Source: Centroscyllium fabricii (lineage: Eukaryota). From it: a stretch of 64,000 nt of DNA. Each line of letters begins with the position of its first letter. The first letter of the stretch is position 1. Shown here in pieces: positions 20,733-64,000 of this stretch. The notes under the pieces are model-generated. The model saw only the letters and a list, made by a program, of their open reading frames with translations, did not search any database and was not told the DNA's origin. Position numbers and translations under genes: made by a program. The stretch lies in NCBI GenBank assembly GCA_051313645.2, contig JBNRSN020000004.1, positions 317,750,001 through 317,814,000 on the forward strand. The letters run 5' to 3'.

Positions 20733-21222
20733 GTGGTGCTTCCAACTTTTATTTTAGAGAAGAGGTCATTGCTGGAAATGTATGCAAATTTCATGGCCCA
20801 TGCAGACATGTTTGTGTCGATCACTGCAGGTACCACAGCTGAAGAACGGATTATCTGCTTTGTGGAATATTACCTGACTGCTTTCCACGAGGGCCGAAAG
20901 GGAGCGGTGGCAAAGAAACCTTATAATCCGATAATTGGAGAAACTTTCCACTGCTCTTGGAACGTGCCAAAAGATAAAGTGAAAGCCAACAACGCTTTAA
21001 CCATTGCCAAGGACGAGCCCAAGACCCAACATGCCCTCGAGTCTAGCAAGGACCCGACAGAATGCTACAAAGTGAGATTTGCGGCAGAACAAGTTTCCCA
21101 TCATCCACCGGTTTCTGGTTTTTACTGCGAATGCAAGGAGAGGAAAATATGTGTGAATGCGCATGTGTGGACCAAGAGCAAATTCATGGGGATGTCCATC
21201 GGGGTCACCATGGTAGGGGAAG
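20733..21222 (+). CDS. OSBPL10: Oxysterol-binding protein-related protein 10, internal exon (ORD N-terminal half)
   Basis: Splice sites ttcttAG and GTaag. Encodes [29 protein letters not shown] and the OSBP signature EQVSHHPP. 490 nt, ends in phase 1. Confidence 0.95.
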
Positions 21223-22109: not shown

Positions 22110-22211
22110 TAGTACAATAGCAAAATACAGTGGATGCTGGTATATAAAATAGAAACCGATAATGCTGGTAATACTCAGCAGGTCAGGCAGCATCTGTGGA
22201 GAGAGAAACAG

Positions 22212-22248
22212 AGTTAACGTTTCAGGTCTGTGACCTTTCGTCAGAACT
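22212..22248 (-). ncRNA. Minimal type I hammerhead ribozyme, intact core
   Basis: Minus strand reads AGUU-CUGACGA-A-AGGUC-aca-GACCU-GAAA-CG-UU-AACU, with palindromic AACGUU in place of helix III. Confidence 0.85.
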
Positions 22249-24195
22249 GGAATAAGTTAGAGATGTGACAGATTTTAACCAGGTACATAGGCAGGGAAAG
22301 ATGAGGTGCTGTTCCTCGAGCTTACGTTGAGCTTCATTGGAACAGTGTAAGAGGCGAAGGACAGAGAGGTCAGAGTGGGAGCAGAGCGGTGAATTAAAGT
22401 GACAGGCGACCAGAAGCTCGGAGTCACCTTTACCGACTGAACGGAGGTGTTCCGCAAAGGGATGGGGCTGGTCGAGGGCCATGTCAACCCAAGATCCACA
22501 AAGAGGACTGCCCTGGTAGACCCATCGTTTCAGCCTGGTCTTGCCCCACAGAACTGATTTCATCCTATCTCTACTCTTTTTTTTTTCTCCCCTTGTCCAG
22601 TCTCTTCCCACCTACATTCATGACTCTTCCTACACCCTCCGCCACTTTAACAGTTTCCAGTTTCCCGGCCCCAACCATTTCCTTTTCACCTATGGATGTC
22701 CAATCCCTCTACACCTCCATCCCCCACCAGGGTGGCCTGAGGGCGCTCCGCTTCTTCCTTGAACAGAGGCCCAACCAGTCCCCATCCACCACAACCCTCC
22801 TCCGCCTGGCTGAACTTGTTCTCACATTGAACAACTTCTCCTCTGATTCCACTCACTTCCTCCAAATTAAAGGTGTTGCTATGGGAACCCGCATGGGCCC
22901 TAGCTATGCCTGCCTGTTCATGGGATAAGTAGAACACCCTTTGTTCCAGTCCTACTCGGGTCCCCTCCCTCACCTCTTTTTCTAGTACATTGATGACTGT
23001 ATTAGTGCCATTTCCTGCTCTCACCCTGAACTAGAATATTTCATTATCTTTGCTTCCAATTTCTACTCTTCCTTCACCTTCACACGGAGCATCTCTGACT
23101 CTTCCCTTCCCTTCCTCGACTACTCTGTCTCTGTTTTTGGGGAAAGGCTATCAACAAACATCCACTATATGCCCACTGACTCCCACAGCTACCTGGACTA
23201 CACTTCCTCCCACCCCGCTTCCTGTAAGGACTCTATTCCATTCTCCCAGTTTCTCCGTCTCTGCCACATCTGTTTTGACGATGGCACCTTCCATACTAGT
23301 GCTTCTGATATGTCTTTCTTTTTCCTCAACCGAGGAGTCCCCTCTACCGTGTCCATTCCATTTCCTGCACTTCTGCTCTCATCCCTTCCCCTCCCCAGAA
23401 CCACGATAGGGTTCCCCTTGTCCTCACCCTTCACCCCACCAGCCTCCACATTCAGCAGAGCATCCTCTGCCATTTCCACCACCTCCAGCGTGATCCCACC
23501 ACCAAACACATCTTCCCCTCCCCTCCCCTTTCAGCATTCCGAAGGAATCGCTCTCTCCGTGACACCCTGGTCCACTCCTCAATCACCCCCAACAGTCCTT
23601 CCCCTTCCCATGGCACCTTCTCGTCCAAGTGCAGGAAATGCAATACATGCCCTTTTACCTCCTCCCTTCCCACTGTCCAGGGCCCCAAACACTCCTTCCA
23701 GGTGAAACAGCGATTTACTTGTACTTCTTGCAATCTAGTATACGGTATTCACTGCTCACAATACGGTCTCCTCTACATTGGGGAGACCAAACGCAGATTG
23801 GGCGATGGCTTTGTGGAACTTCTCCGTTCAGTCATAAGGGTGACCCCGAGCTTCCGGTCGCCTGTCTCTTTAATTCTCCGCTCCGCTCCCACTCTGACCT
23901 CTCTGTCCTCGGCCTCTTACACTGTTCCAATGAAACTCAACGTAAGCTCGAGGAACAGCATCTCATCTTTCGCTTAGGCACTTTACAGCCTTCTGGACTC
24001 AACATCGAGTTCAACAATTTCAGACTATAAGCTCTGCCCCTATTTCTTTCAGACGGCAGCTGTTGTTGATTCTGCCATTCCCATTTGCAGCATTTAACCA
24101 CTCCTGCCTTCCACCCTATCACAGACCTTCCCCTTTGTTCTTTCCTCCCCTTTCCCTGCCTCTGCTTAAAATCTGTTACATCGCTAACTTTTTCC

Positions 24196-24232
24196 AGTTC
24201 TGACAGAAGGTGACAGACCTAAAACGTTAACT
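24196..24232 (+). ncRNA. Degenerate hammerhead ribozyme copy
   Basis: AGUU-CUGACAG-A-AGGUG-aca-GACCU-AAAA-CG-UU-AACU; G8, A9 and G12 are changed relative to the 22212 copy. Confidence 0.75.
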
Positions 24233-24334
24233 CTGTTTCTCTCTCCACAGACGCTGCCTAACCTGCTGAGTATTTCCAGCATTTTCTGTTTTTATTTTAG
24301 CATTGTAGTGTGTTGTTGTAAATGCACCCTGGTC

Positions 24335-29038: not shown

Positions 29039-29225
29039 GTGTCCTTTTCCTCGGTGAGCACGATGAAGAGTATGTTTTCACACTGCCTTGTGCCTATGCA
29101 CGTTCCATACTGACAGTCCCCTGGGTAGAACTGGGGGGTAAAGTCAGTATTAACTGTGCCAAGTCTGGTTACTCTGCTGCTGTCACATTCCACACCAAAC
29201 CTTTCTATGGAGGGAAGGTCCACAG
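29039..29225 (+). CDS. OSBPL10: OSBPL10 internal exon
   Basis: Splice sites ttttctAG and GTaat. Encodes [45 protein letters not shown]; phases 1/2 fit the neighbouring exons. Confidence 0.95.
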
Positions 29226-33421: not shown

Positions 33422-33975
33422 ATTATCTGTAAATATGGGGTCAGCTTCCAGCGAGACTCAGCTTTACTTCTCCGCCACCACTCTCAACTCAACTACTATT
33501 GCTGCGCTGTCTGACTGCCTGTCCAACATCCAGTCATCGATGAGTCAGATATTTAGCCTTTTTCCTTCACGTCATTATGCATCAGATTTGTAGAACGGAA
33601 CGTACCACATGGTTACCTTTGGGATACAGAATATATTTTCCAAGCGATGACTTTTCACACTTGGTTTATGTGGCTTGCTCCTAAATGGAATAGCTGTTAC
33701 ATATACAACAAATGTACAGTATTGTATTAACCTCATAAAAGTGGCAGCAGGTATTATCACCTTGGATATCAATGTGGTCAAACTCCGGTAGCACCAGACA
33801 GGCACCATTTTAGACACAACCTTTGGTGTGGTCTATGACCAAAATAACTTCACATAAGTAGTTTAGTCACTGTCAGATAAAAAGTAACCTGTTTCTGCTT
33901 CATTGGATGCTCATCAATTTACAAATGCAAAAAGTCACACAACACCAGGTTTAAAGTCCAACGTTTTATTTTAAA

Positions 33976-34013
33976 TCACAAGCTTTCGGAGCGTCTGCCC
34001 CTTCGTCAGGCAA
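33976..34013 (-). ncRNA. Minimal type I hammerhead ribozyme (3' pLTR)
   Basis: UUGC-CUGACGA-A-GGGGC-agac-GCUCC-GAAA-GC-UU-GUGA, with palindrome AAGCUU; followed by AATAAA at 33970-33965. Confidence 0.8.
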
Positions 34014-34293
34014 AGAGAAACTGAGGTCAAAGATCACACACATGGGGGAGGGGAGAAATTTGATCCCATACATCCAACCCTAGAGCACACAAGCATATTA
34101 GCATACCTTAACACCTCAGTCTGCAAACAATGGGGCACAATTGCAAAACACAGTGTGATTTTTTTTCCCTTTTTTAAAGCAAAAAAGACACATCAAAAGG
34201 GTGCAGTCACCGGGCCTAACGCTAGTCTGCTGTAAATCCCACAGAATTAAGCCGAAGATGGTTCGGGTCTGGACGACTCCACGTCAGGCAGGG

Positions 34294-36962
34294 TCACATG
34301 TAGCGCGACATAAACCCAATATCACGGTTGAGGCCGTGCTCATGGGTGCGGAACTTGGCAATCAGCCTCTGCTCGACGATTTTGCGTTGTCGTGTATCTT
34401 GAAGGCCACCCTGGAGAATGCTCACCCGAAGATCGGAAGCTGAATGTCCTTGACAGCTGAAATGTTCCCCGACTGGGAGGGAACATTCCTGCCTGGCGAT
34501 TGTTGCGCGGTGCCCGTTCATCCGTTGTCGTAGTGTCTGCATGGTCTCGCCGATGTACCATGCGCCGGAGCATCCTTTCCTGCAACGTATGAGGTAGACA
34601 ACATTGGTCGAGTTACATGAGTATGTGCCATGTACCTGGTGTGTTGTGTCCTCACGTGTGATGATTGTATCTGTGCTGATGATTCGGCACGTTTTGCAGA
34701 GGTTGCTGTGGCAGGGTTGTGTGATGTCGTGGTTGCTGTTCTCCTGAAGGCTGGGTAATTTGCTGCGAACTATAGTCTGTTTGAGGTTAGGTGGCTGTTT
34801 GAAGGCGAGTAGTGGAGGCGCGGGGATGGCCTTAGCGAGGTGTTCGTCATCATCAATGACATGCTGAAGGCTGCGAAGAACATGGCGTAGTTTCTCCGCT
34901 CCGGGGAAGTACTGGACGACAAAGGGTACTCTGTTGGTTGTGTCCCGTGTTTGTCTTCTGAGGAGATCTACGCGATTTTTCGTTGTGGCCCGTCGGAACT
35001 GTCGATCGATGAGTCGAGTGTCATACCCCGTTCTTACGAGGGCGTCTTTCAGTGTCTGTAGGTGTCTGTCGCGTTCCTCCTCATCTGAGCAGATCCTGTG
35101 TATTCGCAGGGCTTGTCCATAGGGGATGGCTTCTTTAACGTGGTTCGGGTGGAAGCTGGAGTAGTGGAGCATCCTGAGGTTGTCTGTGGGTTTGCGGTAG
35201 AGGGAAGTGCTGAGGCATCCGTTTTTGATAGAGATTCGTGTGTCCAAGAATGAAACCGATTCTGAGGAGTAGTCCATGGTGAGTTTGATGGTGGGATGGA
35301 ACTTGTTTATGTTATCGTGTAGTCTTTTCAGTGATTCTTCACCGTGGGTCCACAGGAGGAAAATGTCGTCGATGTATCTGGTGTATAGCGTTGGTTGGAG
35401 GTACTGTGTAGCGAAGAAGTCTTGCTCGAACTTGTGCATGAAGATGTTGGCGTACTGGGGTGCGAATTTGGTCCCCATGGCTGTTCCGTGTGTTTGGGTA
35501 AAAAAATTGTTGTCGAAGGTGAAAACATTGTGGTCAAGGATGAAGCGGATGAGTTGTAGGATGATGTCTGGAGATTGGCTGTTGTTGGTGTTGAGTACTG
35601 AAGCTGTCGCAGCGATGCCGTCATCGTGGGGGATACTGGTGTAGAGTGCCGAGACGTCCATCGTGGCAAGGAGTGTTCCTGGTTCAACTGGTCCGTGGGT
35701 GCTGAGTTTTTGTAAGAAGTCTGTAGTGTCGCGACAAAAGCTTGGGGTTCTCTGAACGATGGGTTTCAGGATGCCCTCGATGTATCCAGAGAGGTTCTCA
35801 CATAGGGTTCCACTGCCTGATACAATAGGGCGTCCCGGTGTGTTGGCTTTGTGTATCTTTGGGAGGCAGTAGAAATCTCCCATGCGGGGATTCCGTGGGA
35901 TGAGGGTGTGTAGGGTGTTCTGAAAGCCTGGGTCGAAGGTCTTGATCAGTCTGTTGAGCTGGCGGGTGTGTTCCTTGGTCGGATCTGCGGGTAGCTGTCT
36001 GTAGTGTTCTTGGTTGTCCAGTTGTCGGTATGCTTCTTTGCAATAGTCTGTTCTGTTCTGTATGACGATGGCTCCTCCTTTGTCTGCCGGTTTGATGACG
36101 ATGTTGCGGTTGGTCTTAAGAGCGCGGATGGTGTCGCGTTGTGCTCGGTTGACATTCTGGACTGTCTTGTGAGTGCGGCTGATGAATTTGGCATTGATGC
36201 ATCTCCTGACAGCTTGAGCATACATGTCCAGCTTAGGGCAGCGGCCCTCTGGAGGGGTCCAATTCGATTCTTCTTTGGTTGCTGCATTGCGTATTCCTCT
36301 ATCAGCTGTTCCGGATCATTGATTGTCTCATTGGGTTCGCCGACATCTGGGGGTCTGTGGAAGTATTCCCGGATCCTAATTCTCCTGATGAATTCCTCTG
36401 TGTCCACCGCAAGACCAATGGGGTCCATCTTGGTGGTGGGGCAGAAATTGAGCTCTCGGCTGAGTACTTCGATTTCATCTGGTTGAAGGATGTGGTCGGA
36501 CAAGTTGACGATGGATTTTCCTGTGGTTTCAACCGTGGTACCAGTGGAGGCTTGGTTTCTGCTGGTGGTGATGCCGAGTTTCTCAAGCTTCCTGTTCTTG
36601 ATGTGCATGTAGGCAGTGTAGTTCCGTCGCCTTGTCTGTTTGGCAGTGTCTCGTAGCTGGTCTGCTGTGTCCTGGGCACAGGCTGAGAACATGGACTCCA
36701 TCCTAGTTTCGAGGTTGCGGCGTCTGCTGTAGAGCTGGTGTACGAGATGGTTGAGGAGTTTGTAAGAAGTACGGCGGCAGAGTCTCTCAGCATAGTCTGT
36801 GTTGTAGGTTGACTTGAGTGGGTTTGTGATCTGTAGTCCTTTTGGGATCTTGTCTGCTTTCCTGCATCTCTGTAGAAATTTGATGTCTGTGTCTAGATGT
36901 GCGATCTTTTTGCAGAGTCTCTCCACTTGGAGCCGGCAGTTCGTGGTGTCGATAGTAGCCAT
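34294..36962 (-). CDS. Penelope-like polyprotein (N-terminal region, RT, Cys linker, GIY-YIG endonuclease) with one frameshift near 36270
   Basis: ATG at 36962 (MATIDTTNCR..) is open to ..QQPK, then shifts frame to ESNWTPPEGRCPKLDMYAQ, which continues as the 643-aa ORF with MDVSALYTSIP, GTAMG, RYIDD, CHSNLCKTC and VVYLIRC..WYIGET. Confidence 0.9.
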
Positions 36963-37049
36963 AATGCGGAGGTGCCGGTGTTGGACTGGGGTGGACAAAT
37001 GCAAAAAGTCACACAACACCAGGTTTAAAGTCCAATGTTTTATTTTAAA

Positions 37050-37087
37050 TCACAAGCTTTCGGAGCGTCTGCCCCTTCGTCAGGCAA
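37050..37087 (-). ncRNA. Minimal type I hammerhead ribozyme (5' pLTR)
   Basis: Identical to 33976-34013; lies about 90 nt upstream of the ORF ATG. Confidence 0.8.
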
Positions 37088-38129
37088 AGAGAAACTGAGG
37101 TCAAAGATCACACACATGGGGGAGGGGAGAAATTTGATCCCATACATCCAACCCTAGAGCACACAAGCATATTAGCATACCTTAACACCTCAGTCTGCAA
37201 ACAATGGGGCACAATTGCAAAACACAGTGTGATTTTTTTTCCCTTTTTTAAAGCAAAAAAGACACATCAAAAGGGTGCAGTCACAGGGCCTAACGCTAGT
37301 CTGCTGTAAATCCCACAGAATTAAGCCGAAGATGGTTCGGGTCTGGACGACTCCACGTCAGGCAGGGTCACACGTAGCGCGACATAAACCCAATATCACG
37401 GTTGAGGCCGTGCTCATGGGTGCGGAACTTGGCAATCAGCCTCTGCTCGACGATTTTGCGTTGTCGTGTATCTTGAAGGCCACCCTGGAGAATGCTCACC
37501 CGAAGATCGGAAGCTGAATGTCCTTGACCGCTGAAATGTTCCCCGACTGGGAGGGAACATTCCTGCCTGGCGATTGTTGCGCGGTGCCCGTTCATCCGTT
37601 GTCGTAGTGTCTGCATGGTCTCGCCGATGTACCATGCGCCGGAGCATCCTTTCCTGCAACGTATGAGGTAGACAACATTGGTCGAGTTACATGAGTATGT
37701 GCCATGTACCTGGTGTGTTGTGTCCTCACGTGTGATGATTGTATCTGTGCTGATGATTCGGCACGTTTTGCAGAGGTTGCTGTGGCAGGGTTGTGTGGTG
37801 TTGTGGTTGCTGTTCTCCATCAATTTACAGACCACATTTGTGACATGTCCACAAACAGTAAGCATTTATTCTTTGCAAGTAGCTTATTTGATGTCAATAA
37901 TTTTACCTTAGTTAATTTCTCTTTCACGTCAGCTTTTTTTCATTTCTCTTCTTCAAATCACAATTTGAGTGACTGTTAAAATTCAGGTTATATCAGTAGT
38001 ACTGTAGCTATTAAATCTAGGTGACTCTATCCACACTTGACCAGATCCTTACATCCTTTCTCTTCCAGCTTGTGCAGTGATTAAAAATGTAAACTGTCTT
38101 TTAATACCTTCTCCTATGACTTCGTGATT

Positions 38130-38500
38130 AAGGCAGTAACTGAGCCAGAGCGATCAGGAAGGTGCCAGGTTCGAGCCCCAGTTGAGTTACTTCATCTCAG
38201 TGGGGCAGCAGTAAGAAAGCTAGAATTAACTTCAGCACCCCTGGAGAGAGAGACAACTCAGTTAGCACCCCACTGCAGATCGTTATCCAGTGACCTGTGC
38301 TGGAAATGTCAGGTGAGGTCAGGATCAGGCTTGGCTGTGAACCCCCACGGTCAAATAGCCCACCAAAACTCACTGTCAAGTCTCAGCAATAATGCCCTGG
38401 CATGTGAGATGCCAGAAGGACCTGCAGAACACTACGCAAGTATGGATTCAGTGCTTTTAGGAGAGAAGGAGGTGAGAAAATTGTCCGAAAAAAAGGAGAG
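38130..38500 (+). mobile_element. LF-SINE-like SINE
   Basis: B box GGTTCGAGCCC, GATCGTTATCCAGTGACC and GGATCAGGCTTGGCTGTGA. Confidence 0.6.
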
Positions 38501-41370: not shown

Positions 41371-41553
41371 AGTTACGGCTGAAGTGAAGCATAATCCCAC
41401 AAATACAATCGTATGCAAGGCACAGGGAGAATGGAATGGAACACTTGAATTCACGTACAGTAGTGGGGAAACAAAAGTGATTGATACGACCAAACTGCCA
41501 GTAATCAGAAAGAAAATACGACCTGTCAAAAAGCAAGGATTGTTCGAATCTAG
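41371..41553 (+). CDS. OSBPL10: OSBPL10 internal exon
   Basis: Splice sites cttgcAG and GTgtgt. Encodes [35 protein letters not shown]; 183 nt, phase 2/2. Confidence 0.95.
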
Positions 41554-59159: not shown

Positions 59160-61745
59160 TCATAGAACATACAGCACTGTACAGGCCCTTGGGCCCTCAA
59201 TGTTGTGCCGCGCTTAGTCCGTCTCTGATTTTTCCTGTCCCCCCTACTCTTCTTTCCCCTCCATGTACCTATCTATCATCCTTTTAAAAGCTCCCAGACT
59301 GTCCGCATCCACTATTTCAGATGGTAGCCTATTCCACTCTCCGACCACTCTCTGTGTAAAGAACTTGCCCCTGCCATCCCTTCTGAATCTTCCTCCTTGA
59401 ATCTTGTGTTCGTGCCCTCTTGTTGTCATTCTTCCCACCCGGGGAAACAGTCTCTGCACGTTTACTCTATCGATCCCCTTCATCATCTTAAACATCTCTA
59501 TTAAGTCCCCCCTCTTCCTTCTCCGCTCCAGGGAGAAGATTCCCAGCTCCCTCAACCTCTCCTCGTACGACTTTCCCCCCATTCCCGGCAGCATCCTGGT
59601 GAATCTCCTCTGTACCCTCTCCAACGCCTCCACATCCCTCCTGTAGTACGGTGCCCAGAACTGCACACAGTACTCCAAGTGTGGTCTCACCAGTGACCTG
59701 TACAGCTGTAGCATGACCTCCCGGTTCTTAAACTCTATTCCCCTGTTGATGAAGGCCAATACACCATAGGCCTTTTTTACTGCCTTATCCACCTGGGTGG
59801 CAGCCTTCAATGATCTGTGTACATATACTCCCAGATCCCTTTGCTCCTCTGCTTTGCTCAGGACCCTGCCGTTGACCCTATATTCCCAACTCCTATTTGC
59901 CCTACCGAAGTGCATCACCTCGCATTTCCCCGTGTTGAACTCCATTTGCCATTCTTCAGCCCAACTCTGCATCCTATCTATATCCCTCTGAAGCCTTCTA
60001 CTTCCTTCCTCCTCGTCCACTACTCCCCCAATCTTTGTGTCATCTGCAAATTTGCTGACCCACCCCTCAGTCCCCTCCTCCAAGTCATTGATAAAGATTA
60101 CAAATAGTAGTGGCCCCAACACCGACCCCTGTGGCACCCCACTGGTGACCGGTCTCCAACCCGAGTATTGGCCCTCTACCACTACCCTCTGCTTTCTCTG
60201 AGCCAGCCAATTCTCAATCCATCCCACTACTTCTTTGTTTACCCCGCAACTCCTTACTTTCTTCATGAGTCGACAGTGCGGGACCTTGTCGAACGCCTTG
60301 CTGAAGTCCATATATATGACATCAACCGCCTTTCCCTCGTCCACACACTTGGTCACCTCCTCAAAGAATTCTATCAGGTTGGTCAGGCACGATTTGCCCT
60401 TAACAAATCCGTGCTGACTGCTCCTGATTAATTTGCCCCTTTCTAGATGGTCGTAGATCCTGTCCCTCAGGACCCTTTCCATCACCTTTCCGACCACCGA
60501 GGTAAGGCTGACTGGTCTGTAGTTCCCTGGCTCGTCCCTGCTCCCCTTTTTAAATATGGGAACCACATTCGCCTCTCTCCAGTCCTCAGGGACTATCCCC
60601 AAGGATAGCGAGGAACTAAAGATAGAGGTCAGTGGCTCTGCGATTTCGTTCCTCGCTTCCCAGAGAATCCTTGGATATATCCCGTCCGGCCCAGGAGATT
60701 TGTCTACCTTCAGTTTCTCCAAAATATCTAATACCTCCTCCCTCTGAATATTTACTTCTCCCATCCTTTCCCCTTGTATCTTGCACTCCTCCTCTACTTT
60801 TAGTCCCCTCTCCCTTGTGAACACGGACGCAAAATATTCATTTAGTGCTTCCCCAATTTCCTCTGACTCTGTGCACATTTCTCCCTTGCCGTCTTTGATC
60901 GGCCCTACTCTTATCCTAGTCATCCTTTTATTTCTTACGTAAGCATAGAAAGCCTTAGAGTTCTCCTTTATCCTTCCCGCTAATGCCCTTCCTTAGCCCA
61001 TTCTTCAGTTCTTTCCTTGCTTCTTTGTACTCCTTTCCCGCCCATGCTGTACCCTGCTTTCTCATTCTATCATATGCCTCCTTCTTCTTTACTAAATGTT
61101 CTACCTCTTTCGTTATCCATTGTTCTCTCATCTTTCCCTTGTTTCCCATCCTACTCGGGACATGCTTATCCAGGGCTTTCATAATTTGCTCCCTGAACAC
61201 TCTCCATTTTTCTTCCGTTCCCCTCCCAGCAAGTTCCCGTTCCCAATCGAGGTTAGCTAAATCCTGCCTAACCCTGTCGTAATTTCCCCTCCCCCAGCTG
61301 TATACCTTACCCTGCCTCATGCTCCTATCCTTCTCCATTACTATTGTGAACGTCACCGAGTTGTGGTCACTGTCCCCAAAGCGCTCCCTTACCCCCAGTT
61401 CTACCACTTGGCCTGGTTCATTTCCCAGAACCAGGTCCAAGGTTGCCCCTCCCCTTGTTGGTTCCTCCACGTATTGTGTCAGGAAACCTTCCTGCACGCA
61501 TTGTAAGAAAATCTCTCCATCTGCACTATTTGACCTACCTAGATTCCAGTCTATATTAGGGAAATTGAAATCTCCCATGATAACTACCCTATGTCCCCCA
61601 CATCTATCCATTATTTGTCGCGCAATTTCCTCCTCCACCTCCCTGTTACTATTTGGTGGTCTATAAAAGACTCCCACTAACGTTACCGCCACTTTCCTAT
61701 TTCTAAGCTCCGCCCATACTACCTCCGTACGTGTGTCCCCCTGTG
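59160..61745 (-). mobile_element. Young 5'-truncated CR1 LINE (ORF2 endonuclease and RT, one frameshift near 60990)
   Basis: ORF 60955..61692 has YRPP, GDFNFP, LDLV and SDH. ORF 59244..60923 has KSPGPDG, NYRPVSLTS, MDFSKAFD, GVPQGSVLGP and FADD. Short 3' UTR ends TATGTTCTATG. Confidence 0.96.
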
Positions 61746-62114
61746 TTTTTCATGTGCTTACATATGAAAGAACTAGCAATGTACCTGTATATGGTACGAT
61801 AAGCAAAAGTAACAGCTGACACTACAGTACATGAAGTATTAGAGGTAGAAGAAATAAAACAAATGACCAGAATCAGCTAAGTCAGAAATTTATTGTCCCA
61901 CAAGGCTAAGCCAACTTTAGTAAGGGTCTTGTCATTTCATTTTTATTTTTGTTCATGTTTAGGTCTTTCAAAGTCAGTCCTAAATCGTTGAATGCAACTT
62001 TTTTGTCTTGTCATTTAATGTTCACATGCTTCTTGCCATCTTCTGGTGACTTCAACTAACTCAAGAACATTTAACTTTCTTTGCAACAACACACCAGCCT
62101 TTTTAGGTTTCAAT

Positions 62115-62744: not shown

Positions 62745-64000
62745 AGCAAACATCAAGACATTGTTTCCAAGACTGTCACTGACCTCATCTCCTCTGGAGA
62801 TCTTCCCCGCAGGGCCACCAGCCTCATAGTTCCCCAACCCCGCACAGCCCGCTTCTACCTCCTTCCCAAGATCCACAAACAGGACTGCCCTGGTAGACCC
62901 ATCATTTTAGCCTGTTCTTGCCCCACGGATCTCTTATCTCGACTCCATTTTTTCTCCCATTGTCCAGTTTCTTCCCACCTACATTCGTGACTCTTCCGAC
63001 GCCCTCCGTCACTTATAATAGTTTCCAGTTTCCTGGCCCCAACCGTCTCCTTTTCACTGGACGTCCAATCCCTCTACACCTCCATCCCCCACCAGGACGG
63101 CCTTAGGGCGCTCCGTTTCTTCCTTGAACAGAGACCCAACCAGTCCCCATCCACCACCACCCTCCTCCGCCTGGCTGAATTTGTTCTCACATTGAATAAC
63201 TTCTCCTCTGATTCCACTCACTTCCTCCAAATTAAAGGTGTTGCTGTGGAACCCGCATGGGCCCTAGCTATGCCTGCCTGTTCATGGGTTATGTAGAACA
63301 CTCTTTGTTCCAGTCCTATTCAGGTCCCCTCCCTCACCTCTTTTTCTGGTACATTGATGACTGTATTGGTGCCGTTTCCTGCTCTCGCTCTGAACTAGAT
63401 AAGTTCATTTACTTTACTTCCAATTTCCACCCTTCCCTCACCTTCACATGGTCCATTTCCGACTCTTCCCTTCCCTTTCTTGACTTCTTCGTCTCCATTT
63501 CTGGTGATCAGCTTTTGACAAACATCCACTACAAGCCCACCGACTCCCACAGCTACCTGGACTACACTTCCTCCCACCCCGCTTCCTGTAAGGACTCTAT
63601 TCCATTATCCCAGTTTCTCCGTCTCCGCCGTGTCTGTTCTGACGATGCCACCTTCCATACCAGTGCTTCTGACATGTCTTCCTTTTTCCTCAATCGAGGA
63701 TTCCCTTCTACTGTGGTTGACACGGCCCTTGACCGTGTCCGTTCCATTTCCTACACTCCTGCTCTCACCGCTTCCCCTCCCTCCCAGAACCACGATAGAG
63801 TTACCCTTGTCCTCGCCTTTCACCCCACCAGCCTCCACATTCAACGGATCATCCTCCGCCATTTCCGCCAACGTGATCCCACCACCAAACACATCTTCCC
63901 CTCACCTCCCCTTTCAGCATTCCAAAGCTCCCTCTGTGACACCCTGGTCCACTCCTCAATCACCCCTAACAGCCCTTCTCCTTCACCTGGCACCTTCCTG
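62745..64000 (+). mobile_element. Penelope-like element RT region, same family as 22490-24298; runs off the window end
   Basis: FYLLPKIHKQDCPGRPI, DVQSLYTSIP and YIDD with frameshifts; colinear with 22490-23620. Confidence 0.92.

Follow-up and report, generated by a model that had tools for sequence, protein, structure and literature searches.

How do Penelope-like elements (PLEs) rebuild their tandem arrangement, and what do their hammerhead ribozymes do? This question is restated, and not answered, by an element lying within 64,000 nucleotides (nt) of Centroscyllium fabricii DNA (contig JBNRSN020000004.1, positions 317,750,001 to 317,814,000; hereafter the window, with positions counted from its first letter). 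Taken together, the evidence makes it highly probable that this element belongs to an abundant PLE family of sharks, likely of the Neptune clade, and that the copy has a frameshift and is likely non-autonomous. It was likely inserted by target-primed reverse transcription (TPRT) into an AT-rich intronic site and carries hammerheads in a partial tandem.

The element spans 37818 to 33921 on the minus strand and contains two 824-nt repeats at an offset of 3,074 nt, as expected from a sequence-only reading of the window that had described a partial and a full copy in tandem with ~99% identical repeats. Its parts and the target-site duplication (TSD) around it are the following:

33921..36994, minus strand: full 3074-nt unit (tail, open reading frame (ORF), 3′ untranslated region (UTR) and hammerhead module)
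36995..37818, minus strand: 5′ pseudo-long terminal repeat (pLTR), a 5′-truncated upstream copy (end of the endonuclease (EN) coding sequence, 3′ UTR and hammerhead module)
33921..34744, minus strand: 3′ pLTR, 818/824 identical (99.3%) to the upstream copy
36964..36994, minus strand: 31-nt C/A-rich tail, absent at the 3′ end of the insertion
33912..33923: left copy of the TSD, its last 3 nt common to the element 3′ end
37818..37829: right copy of the TSD, 1 nt common to the element 5′ end

The 12-nt TSD, CATCAATTTACA, occurs twice within the whole 64-kb window, both times at the junctions, with a chance probability of ~4e-6 when 30 offsets are allowed. The shared letters are ACA at the 3′ end, in accord with the 11–12-bp TSD and ACA microhomology read earlier. 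An empty orthologous site was found in a relative, organism D, one contig of which joins 33456–33923 to 37845–38338 and thereby confirms both the boundaries and the duplication. At 36964, 257 contigs of run X1 depart into unrelated, heterogeneous DNA, which defines the 31-nt segment as an optional tail, a PLE signature. In some family contigs this tail is duplicated with a 9-nt spacer, much as Drosophila Penelope has one or two repeats of 34 bp. A partial tandem forming pLTRs, an optional tail in the 30–40-nt range and a variable TSD are the hallmarks of a canonical EN-containing (EN+) PLE. Separately, within 36964–37045, the tail is complementary to two separate stretches just past the hammerhead and could form alternative stems around the start of reverse transcription; the predicted stem around the tail was not significant (z 1.01).

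The coding region of the full unit is interrupted. From the ATG at 36962 to the stop at 34294 there are 2,669 nt, a length not divisible by 3, and the reverse transcriptase (RT) and EN domains lie in a different frame from the N-terminal region:

36268..36962, minus strand: N-terminal part of the ORF, with the ATG at 36962 and a Gly-to-Glu change at 36406 in the GLNF motif
36267..36268, minus strand: frameshift lesion, where family contigs have four more letters; the N-terminal frame continues to a stop near 35946
34294..36267, minus strand: RT (DKG, YIDD), CX4CXXC linker and C-terminal GIY-YIG endonuclease with CCHH

The RT was recognized by Pfam RVT_1 (E 5.8e-10), with DKG at 78 and YIDD at 314 of P0001, and is followed by a linker finger of the CX2-5CxxC type (CHSNLCKTC at 535). 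A Pfam search of the GIY-YIG part alone returned no match; its motifs were recognized by sequence (VYLIRCRKGC..WYIGET, GHR, EHF, VEQ and GLN), comprising GIY-YIG with CCHH and the R, H, E and N residues. Full-length homologs of 881 and 882 amino acids (aa) align with the N-terminal part and the RT–EN part in different frames. A programmed frameshift or an intron common to the family was considered, since four shark gene models start at an internal methionine, and was rejected because three homologs (P0123, P0126 and P0129) cross the break in one frame and because four extra letters stand behind 36267 in family contigs of three of the four runs (in X1, 7,986 of 38,990 depth, in 3 contigs). With a broken ORF in the window and continuous homologs in the family, we are therefore dealing with a damaged copy, not another family, and comparison with those contigs makes the frameshift likely to be private to it. 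The second lesion concerns the Gly of GLNF, which is present in 6/6 homologs inspected, namely those in which the motif search located GLNF (it missed 3 further homologs). The window letter at 36406 accounts for 12 of 35,375 depth in X1, or about one copy. The window copy is thus best described as frameshifted and likely non-autonomous. The sequence-only reading had called the system likely active and had envisaged a unit-length RNA carrying the whole ORF. Neither proposal is supported for this copy: its ORF is split near 36267, GLNF is altered and, as described below, the insertion is carried by both samples of the best-matching organism.

Domain content and layout are those of a canonical Penelope-like retrotransposon with RT and GIY-YIG domains. 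The best protein matches of the element, from 3,222 matches among 8,000 scored candidates, are in the sharks Heptranchias perlo (89% identical) and Scyliorhinus torazame (84%), which points to a likely shark host. The linker finger is common to Neptune and Nematis and is absent in Penelope/Poseidon (PMC8557442), and only Neptune and Poseidon are reported in the vertebrates sampled by Li et al. (bioRxiv 10.64898/2026.07.22.740005); the finger admits either of the first two clades, and Neptune is preferred as the one reported in vertebrates, making it the likely assignment. Like the Neptune elements of Craig et al. 2021 (PMC8557442), the family combines an N-terminal region, RT, CX2-5CxxC linker, GIY-YIG with CCHH, a partial tandem and a 30–40-nt tail. 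The window copy departs from them in its frameshift and in lacking an inverted 5′ copy. In X1, 77,007 contigs fit the stretch, most of them 90–99% identical. Summed contig depth, which gives no copy number, was 56,000–2,600,000 on the element versus 15–29 on unique flank bins and declines toward the ORF 5′ end. The contig data indicate a large, heterogeneous, 5′-truncated shark family.

The flanks of the empty site in organism D differ by 32 substitutions in 962 letters (3.3%), and by this comparison the insertion postdates the split from that relative. Unbroken contigs cross both junctions at single-copy depth in samples S1 and S2 of organism A (2/2, one of which may be the source of the window itself), so insertion polymorphism, which had been proposed as a check on the element, did not appear there. 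No empty-site joint was seen for X1 or X3 among 15 of 251 joints listed, a weak sign compared with the unbroken junction contigs. The two repeats have diverged by 0.73% (95% range 0.27–1.6%), about one-fifth of the flank distance to organism D and less when CpG sites are set aside; CpG transitions make up three of the six repeat differences (P=0.015). At the epaulette shark mutation rate of 7e-10 per generation, this corresponds to ~5 million generations (0.9 to 57 million when both confidence ranges are taken into account), an upper bound because CpG sites mutate faster and the parent repeats may already have differed. The description of the element as recently inserted holds on an evolutionary scale only.

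Exons matching Pfam PF01237 (Oxysterol_BP) were found on the plus strand near 20733–21215 and 29050–29223. From familiar motifs we take regions near 41400, 46200 and 48700 to be likely further exons of an oxysterol-binding protein, and the host gene as a whole (exons 20733–48800, plus strand) presumably resembles OSBPL10/11. Judged by these exons, the element lies antisense in an intron of this gene, so the host pre-mRNA would carry no sense hammerhead. Bringing both motifs into one RNA would need a promoter of the element's own, such as that shown for Drosophila Penelope. The hammerheads at this locus are likely idle, since transcription of the host gene follows the opposite strand.

The two hammerheads and the candidate processing signals next to them are placed as follows:

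37050..37087, minus strand: upstream minimal type I hammerhead, predicted cut 37054/37053, 91 nt ahead of the ATG
33976..34013, minus strand: downstream minimal type I hammerhead, predicted cut 33980/33979
37039..37044, minus strand: AATAAA followed by GU/U-rich sequence, a candidate poly(A)-signal-like element
33965..33970, minus strand: AATAAA followed by GU/U-rich sequence, a candidate poly(A)-signal-like element

Their cores begin at 37083 and 34009 and are mutually identical, which bears out the earlier description of identical minimal hammerheads 3074 nt apart, as do the AAGCTT hexamers at 33980–33985 and 37054–37059 (AAGCUU in the RNA) and the AATAAA that starts 9 nt past each predicted cut. 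A third AATAAA lies directly ahead of the ORF. Each motif reads helix I UUGC, core CUGACGA, an unpaired A, helix II GGGGC/GCUCC with a 4-nt loop, GAAA-GC-U, U17 and then GUGA. The sequence features listed for the minimal type I class are present: CUGANGA, GAAA and UH, an extra nucleotide at 9/10.1, a G10.1–C11.1 pair and a palindromic 15.2–16.2. Two letters of the 6-nt palindrome, U17 and A14, would stay unpaired in the active form of the core, which leaves the inner 4 nt as the working palindrome. A descriptor search found three motifs in the 64-kb window. In 100 Markov simulations the mean number was 0.08 per 64 kb, falling to 0.00 under the stricter demand of helix I ≥4 and helix II ≥5. No matches were returned by Rfam at E≤1 or by a PDB sequence search. 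In the window copy, helix I contains two G–U wobbles; in other family contigs, the loose-end consensus at 34010/37084 gives four Watson–Crick pairs.

In folding predictions for these motifs, helix II forms with a probability of 0.03–0.83, depending on context, and helix I with ≤0.08, and the minimum-energy fold is a competing hairpin. In a co-fold model that leaves out tertiary contacts, the active dimer reached −13.5 kcal/mol, versus −16.6 kcal/mol for two misfolded monomers and −21.7 kcal/mol for the best co-fold. The hammerheads are a family heritage that would cut weakly, and only as dimers or with protein help; self-cutting or circular RNA at this locus is a prediction. An observation in its own right is that opposite-strand (inverted) joints occur exactly at the hammerhead upstream edge, 34010/37084, in 10 X1, 7 X3, 0 and 1 X11 contigs across the four runs, suggesting head-to-head hammerhead modules.

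A pattern scan retrieved five metagenome loci, of which three (two distinct sequences) fold as hammerheads and two resemble chance bacterial matches; none of the five belongs to the shark element family, and viral contigs gave 0 matches. The three marine-metagenome minimal hammerheads (L001:395-460, L002 and L003:395-450) are unrelated to the shark element and share its core as well as its GUGA strand of helix I. Their architecture is the same, with helices changed yet paired, a comparison biased by the pattern, which fixed part of helix II; AATAAA follows in L001 and L002.

Hammerheads of this kind have precedents. Cervera and de la Peña 2014 (PMC4209133) described minimal hammerheads ~3 kb apart in PLE repeats, found that dimers cleave weakly and proposed circles as templates for more-than-unit PLE copies. 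The background given in the sequence-only reading, that PLE pLTRs carry minimal type I hammerheads proposed to cleave as dimers, agrees with that work, and dimer cleavage with circularization is accordingly not a new idea. No mention of sharks was found in the text examined of that survey of metazoan pLTR hammerheads; the window element differs in its 5-bp helix II and wobbled helix I. PAc, a Poseidon element of Anolis carolinensis (Frangieh 2024, PMC11167929), resembles the window element in its AT-rich target with ATT, its two adjacent RT start sites bounding the tail and a hammerhead near the ORF start. In contrast to the window element, PAc has no linker finger and its hammerhead overlaps the start codon rather than being cut 91 nt upstream; the 3-nt target–RNA microhomology is a further feature of the window insertion. 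Non-LTR retrozymes (Cervera and de la Peña 2020, PMC7229834; Li et al., bioRxiv 10.64898/2026.07.22.740005) likewise have tandem type I hammerheads, with a dimer requirement in vertebrates, but their units are short (51–972 bp) and non-coding and their circles demonstrated, unlike the 3,074-nt unit here, which codes for RT–EN and falls outside that class.

The insertion may have arisen as follows. A GIY-YIG nuclease would nick the AT-rich target, as inferred from PAc, for which nicking of AT-rich DNA is reported, with RT starting at either of two internal sites that flank the tail (PMC11167929). Three nucleotides of the target end would then pair with the RNA where the tail-less start lies, 56–59 nt downstream of the hammerhead cut position, and RT would copy 1.27 units across two intact hammerheads before halting inside the EN region. 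Because the insert starts 56–59 nt past the cut and spans 1.27 units, a linear cut-to-cut RNA could not be the only template. The template may instead have been an uncleaved multi-unit RNA, a circle or RNA joined by strand transfer; all three fit, and the sequence cannot separate them. We rank uncleaved or strand-transferred linear RNA first. In favor of the linear readings, work on PAc reports that hammerhead mutants insert normally in vitro and, for the Anolis RNA-seq described there, that no reads end at the hammerhead cut site (PMC11167929). PMC2377424 describes no mechanism as obvious for rebuilding the PLE tandem.

Among the specific routes, a linear RNA with overlapping ends, starting just upstream of one hammerhead and ending past the downstream AATAAA, with RT jumping between these ends as retroviral RT does at R and so rebuilding the tandem with no cutting at all, has a fairly low probability, slightly above that of the circle discussed next. 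Each hammerhead is followed by AATAAA and a GU-rich element, as AATAAA also follows the unrelated L001/L002 hammerhead, and the inverted joints fall at the hammerhead upstream edge; however, the loose ends at 34010/37084 resemble the upstream sequence of the window and may be subfamily divergence, and the insert 3′ end lies ~45 nt past AATAAA, exceeding the usual poly(A) cut distance of 10–30 nt. In the alternative built on self-cleavage, the hammerheads pair via their palindromes and excise a 3,074-nt RNA that a ligase then closes, and RT travels more than once around it. The insert begins downstream of one cut site and crosses two without a scar, and its 5′ repeat carries 451 nt of EN coding sequence ahead of the 5′ UTR repeat; had transcription begun within the 3′ UTR, as it does in Drosophila Penelope, this stretch would be missing. 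Short vertebrate hammerhead retrozymes, moreover, form circles. Against this stand the weak cleavage of minimal hammerheads even as dimers (PMC4209133), cleavage of Xenopus retrozyme dimers in 1/9 (Li et al., bioRxiv 10.64898/2026.07.22.740005), an active dimer predicted to be less stable than its misfolded competitors and the absence of loose ends at the cut sites among the 24 loose ends listed (5,420 more lie beyond these). No demonstrated 3-kb PLE circle was found among the papers listed in a search of the open literature. We consider the excised circle improbable, and equally doubt that the insert is the footprint of rolling-circle reverse transcription, started 56–59 nt past the cut on a 3,074-nt coding circle and continued for 1.27 rounds.

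Several points weigh against a damaged copy made from uncut or strand-transferred RNA. A linear template accounts for the seamless 1.27-unit insert no better than a circle does, and both hammerhead cores are intact. The four-letter form makes up only ~20% of X1 depth at 36267, and the lesion could be common to a sub-lineage or an assembly error. With 673 open codons and every catalytic motif kept, the RT–EN frame departs from unanimous close homologs at only two positions and could conceivably yield an internally started protein. The open frame bears as well on the proposal that the window copy is itself active, its frameshift being an assembly error or its translation starting from the internal ATG at 36225, the methionine at which the four shark gene models begin. 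We regard this as very improbable: homologs of full length (881–882 aa) require the 200 aa at the N terminus, position 36406 holds a second lesion, the two repeats have diverged and the insertion is in both samples.

Other repeats accompany the element in the window. A second, degenerate Penelope-like family occupies 22141–24299, with a broken ORF on the plus strand (~22449–24012) and inverted end modules at its flanks; its minus-strand module contains an intact-looking minimal hammerhead at 22244 with the palindrome AACGUU, and the plus-strand one near 24190 has a damaged core. A degenerate Penelope-like RT fragment lies on the plus strand at 62799–64000 and runs past the window end. Long minus-strand frames at 59247–61749 presumably represent a CR1/L2-type long interspersed nuclear element (LINE) endonuclease–RT, which they resemble.

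The locus adds a further damaged member to a known class of elements and is a poor test object; a family copy that is both intact and expressed would serve better. If rolling-circle copying did operate, copy ends and germline RNA from this family, with its two sharp start sites and huge number of copies, could settle the circle model proposed in 2014 as it applies to autonomous Penelope elements. A 3-kb coding circle, if shown, would tie autonomous retrotransposons to retrozymes and viroid-like replication.

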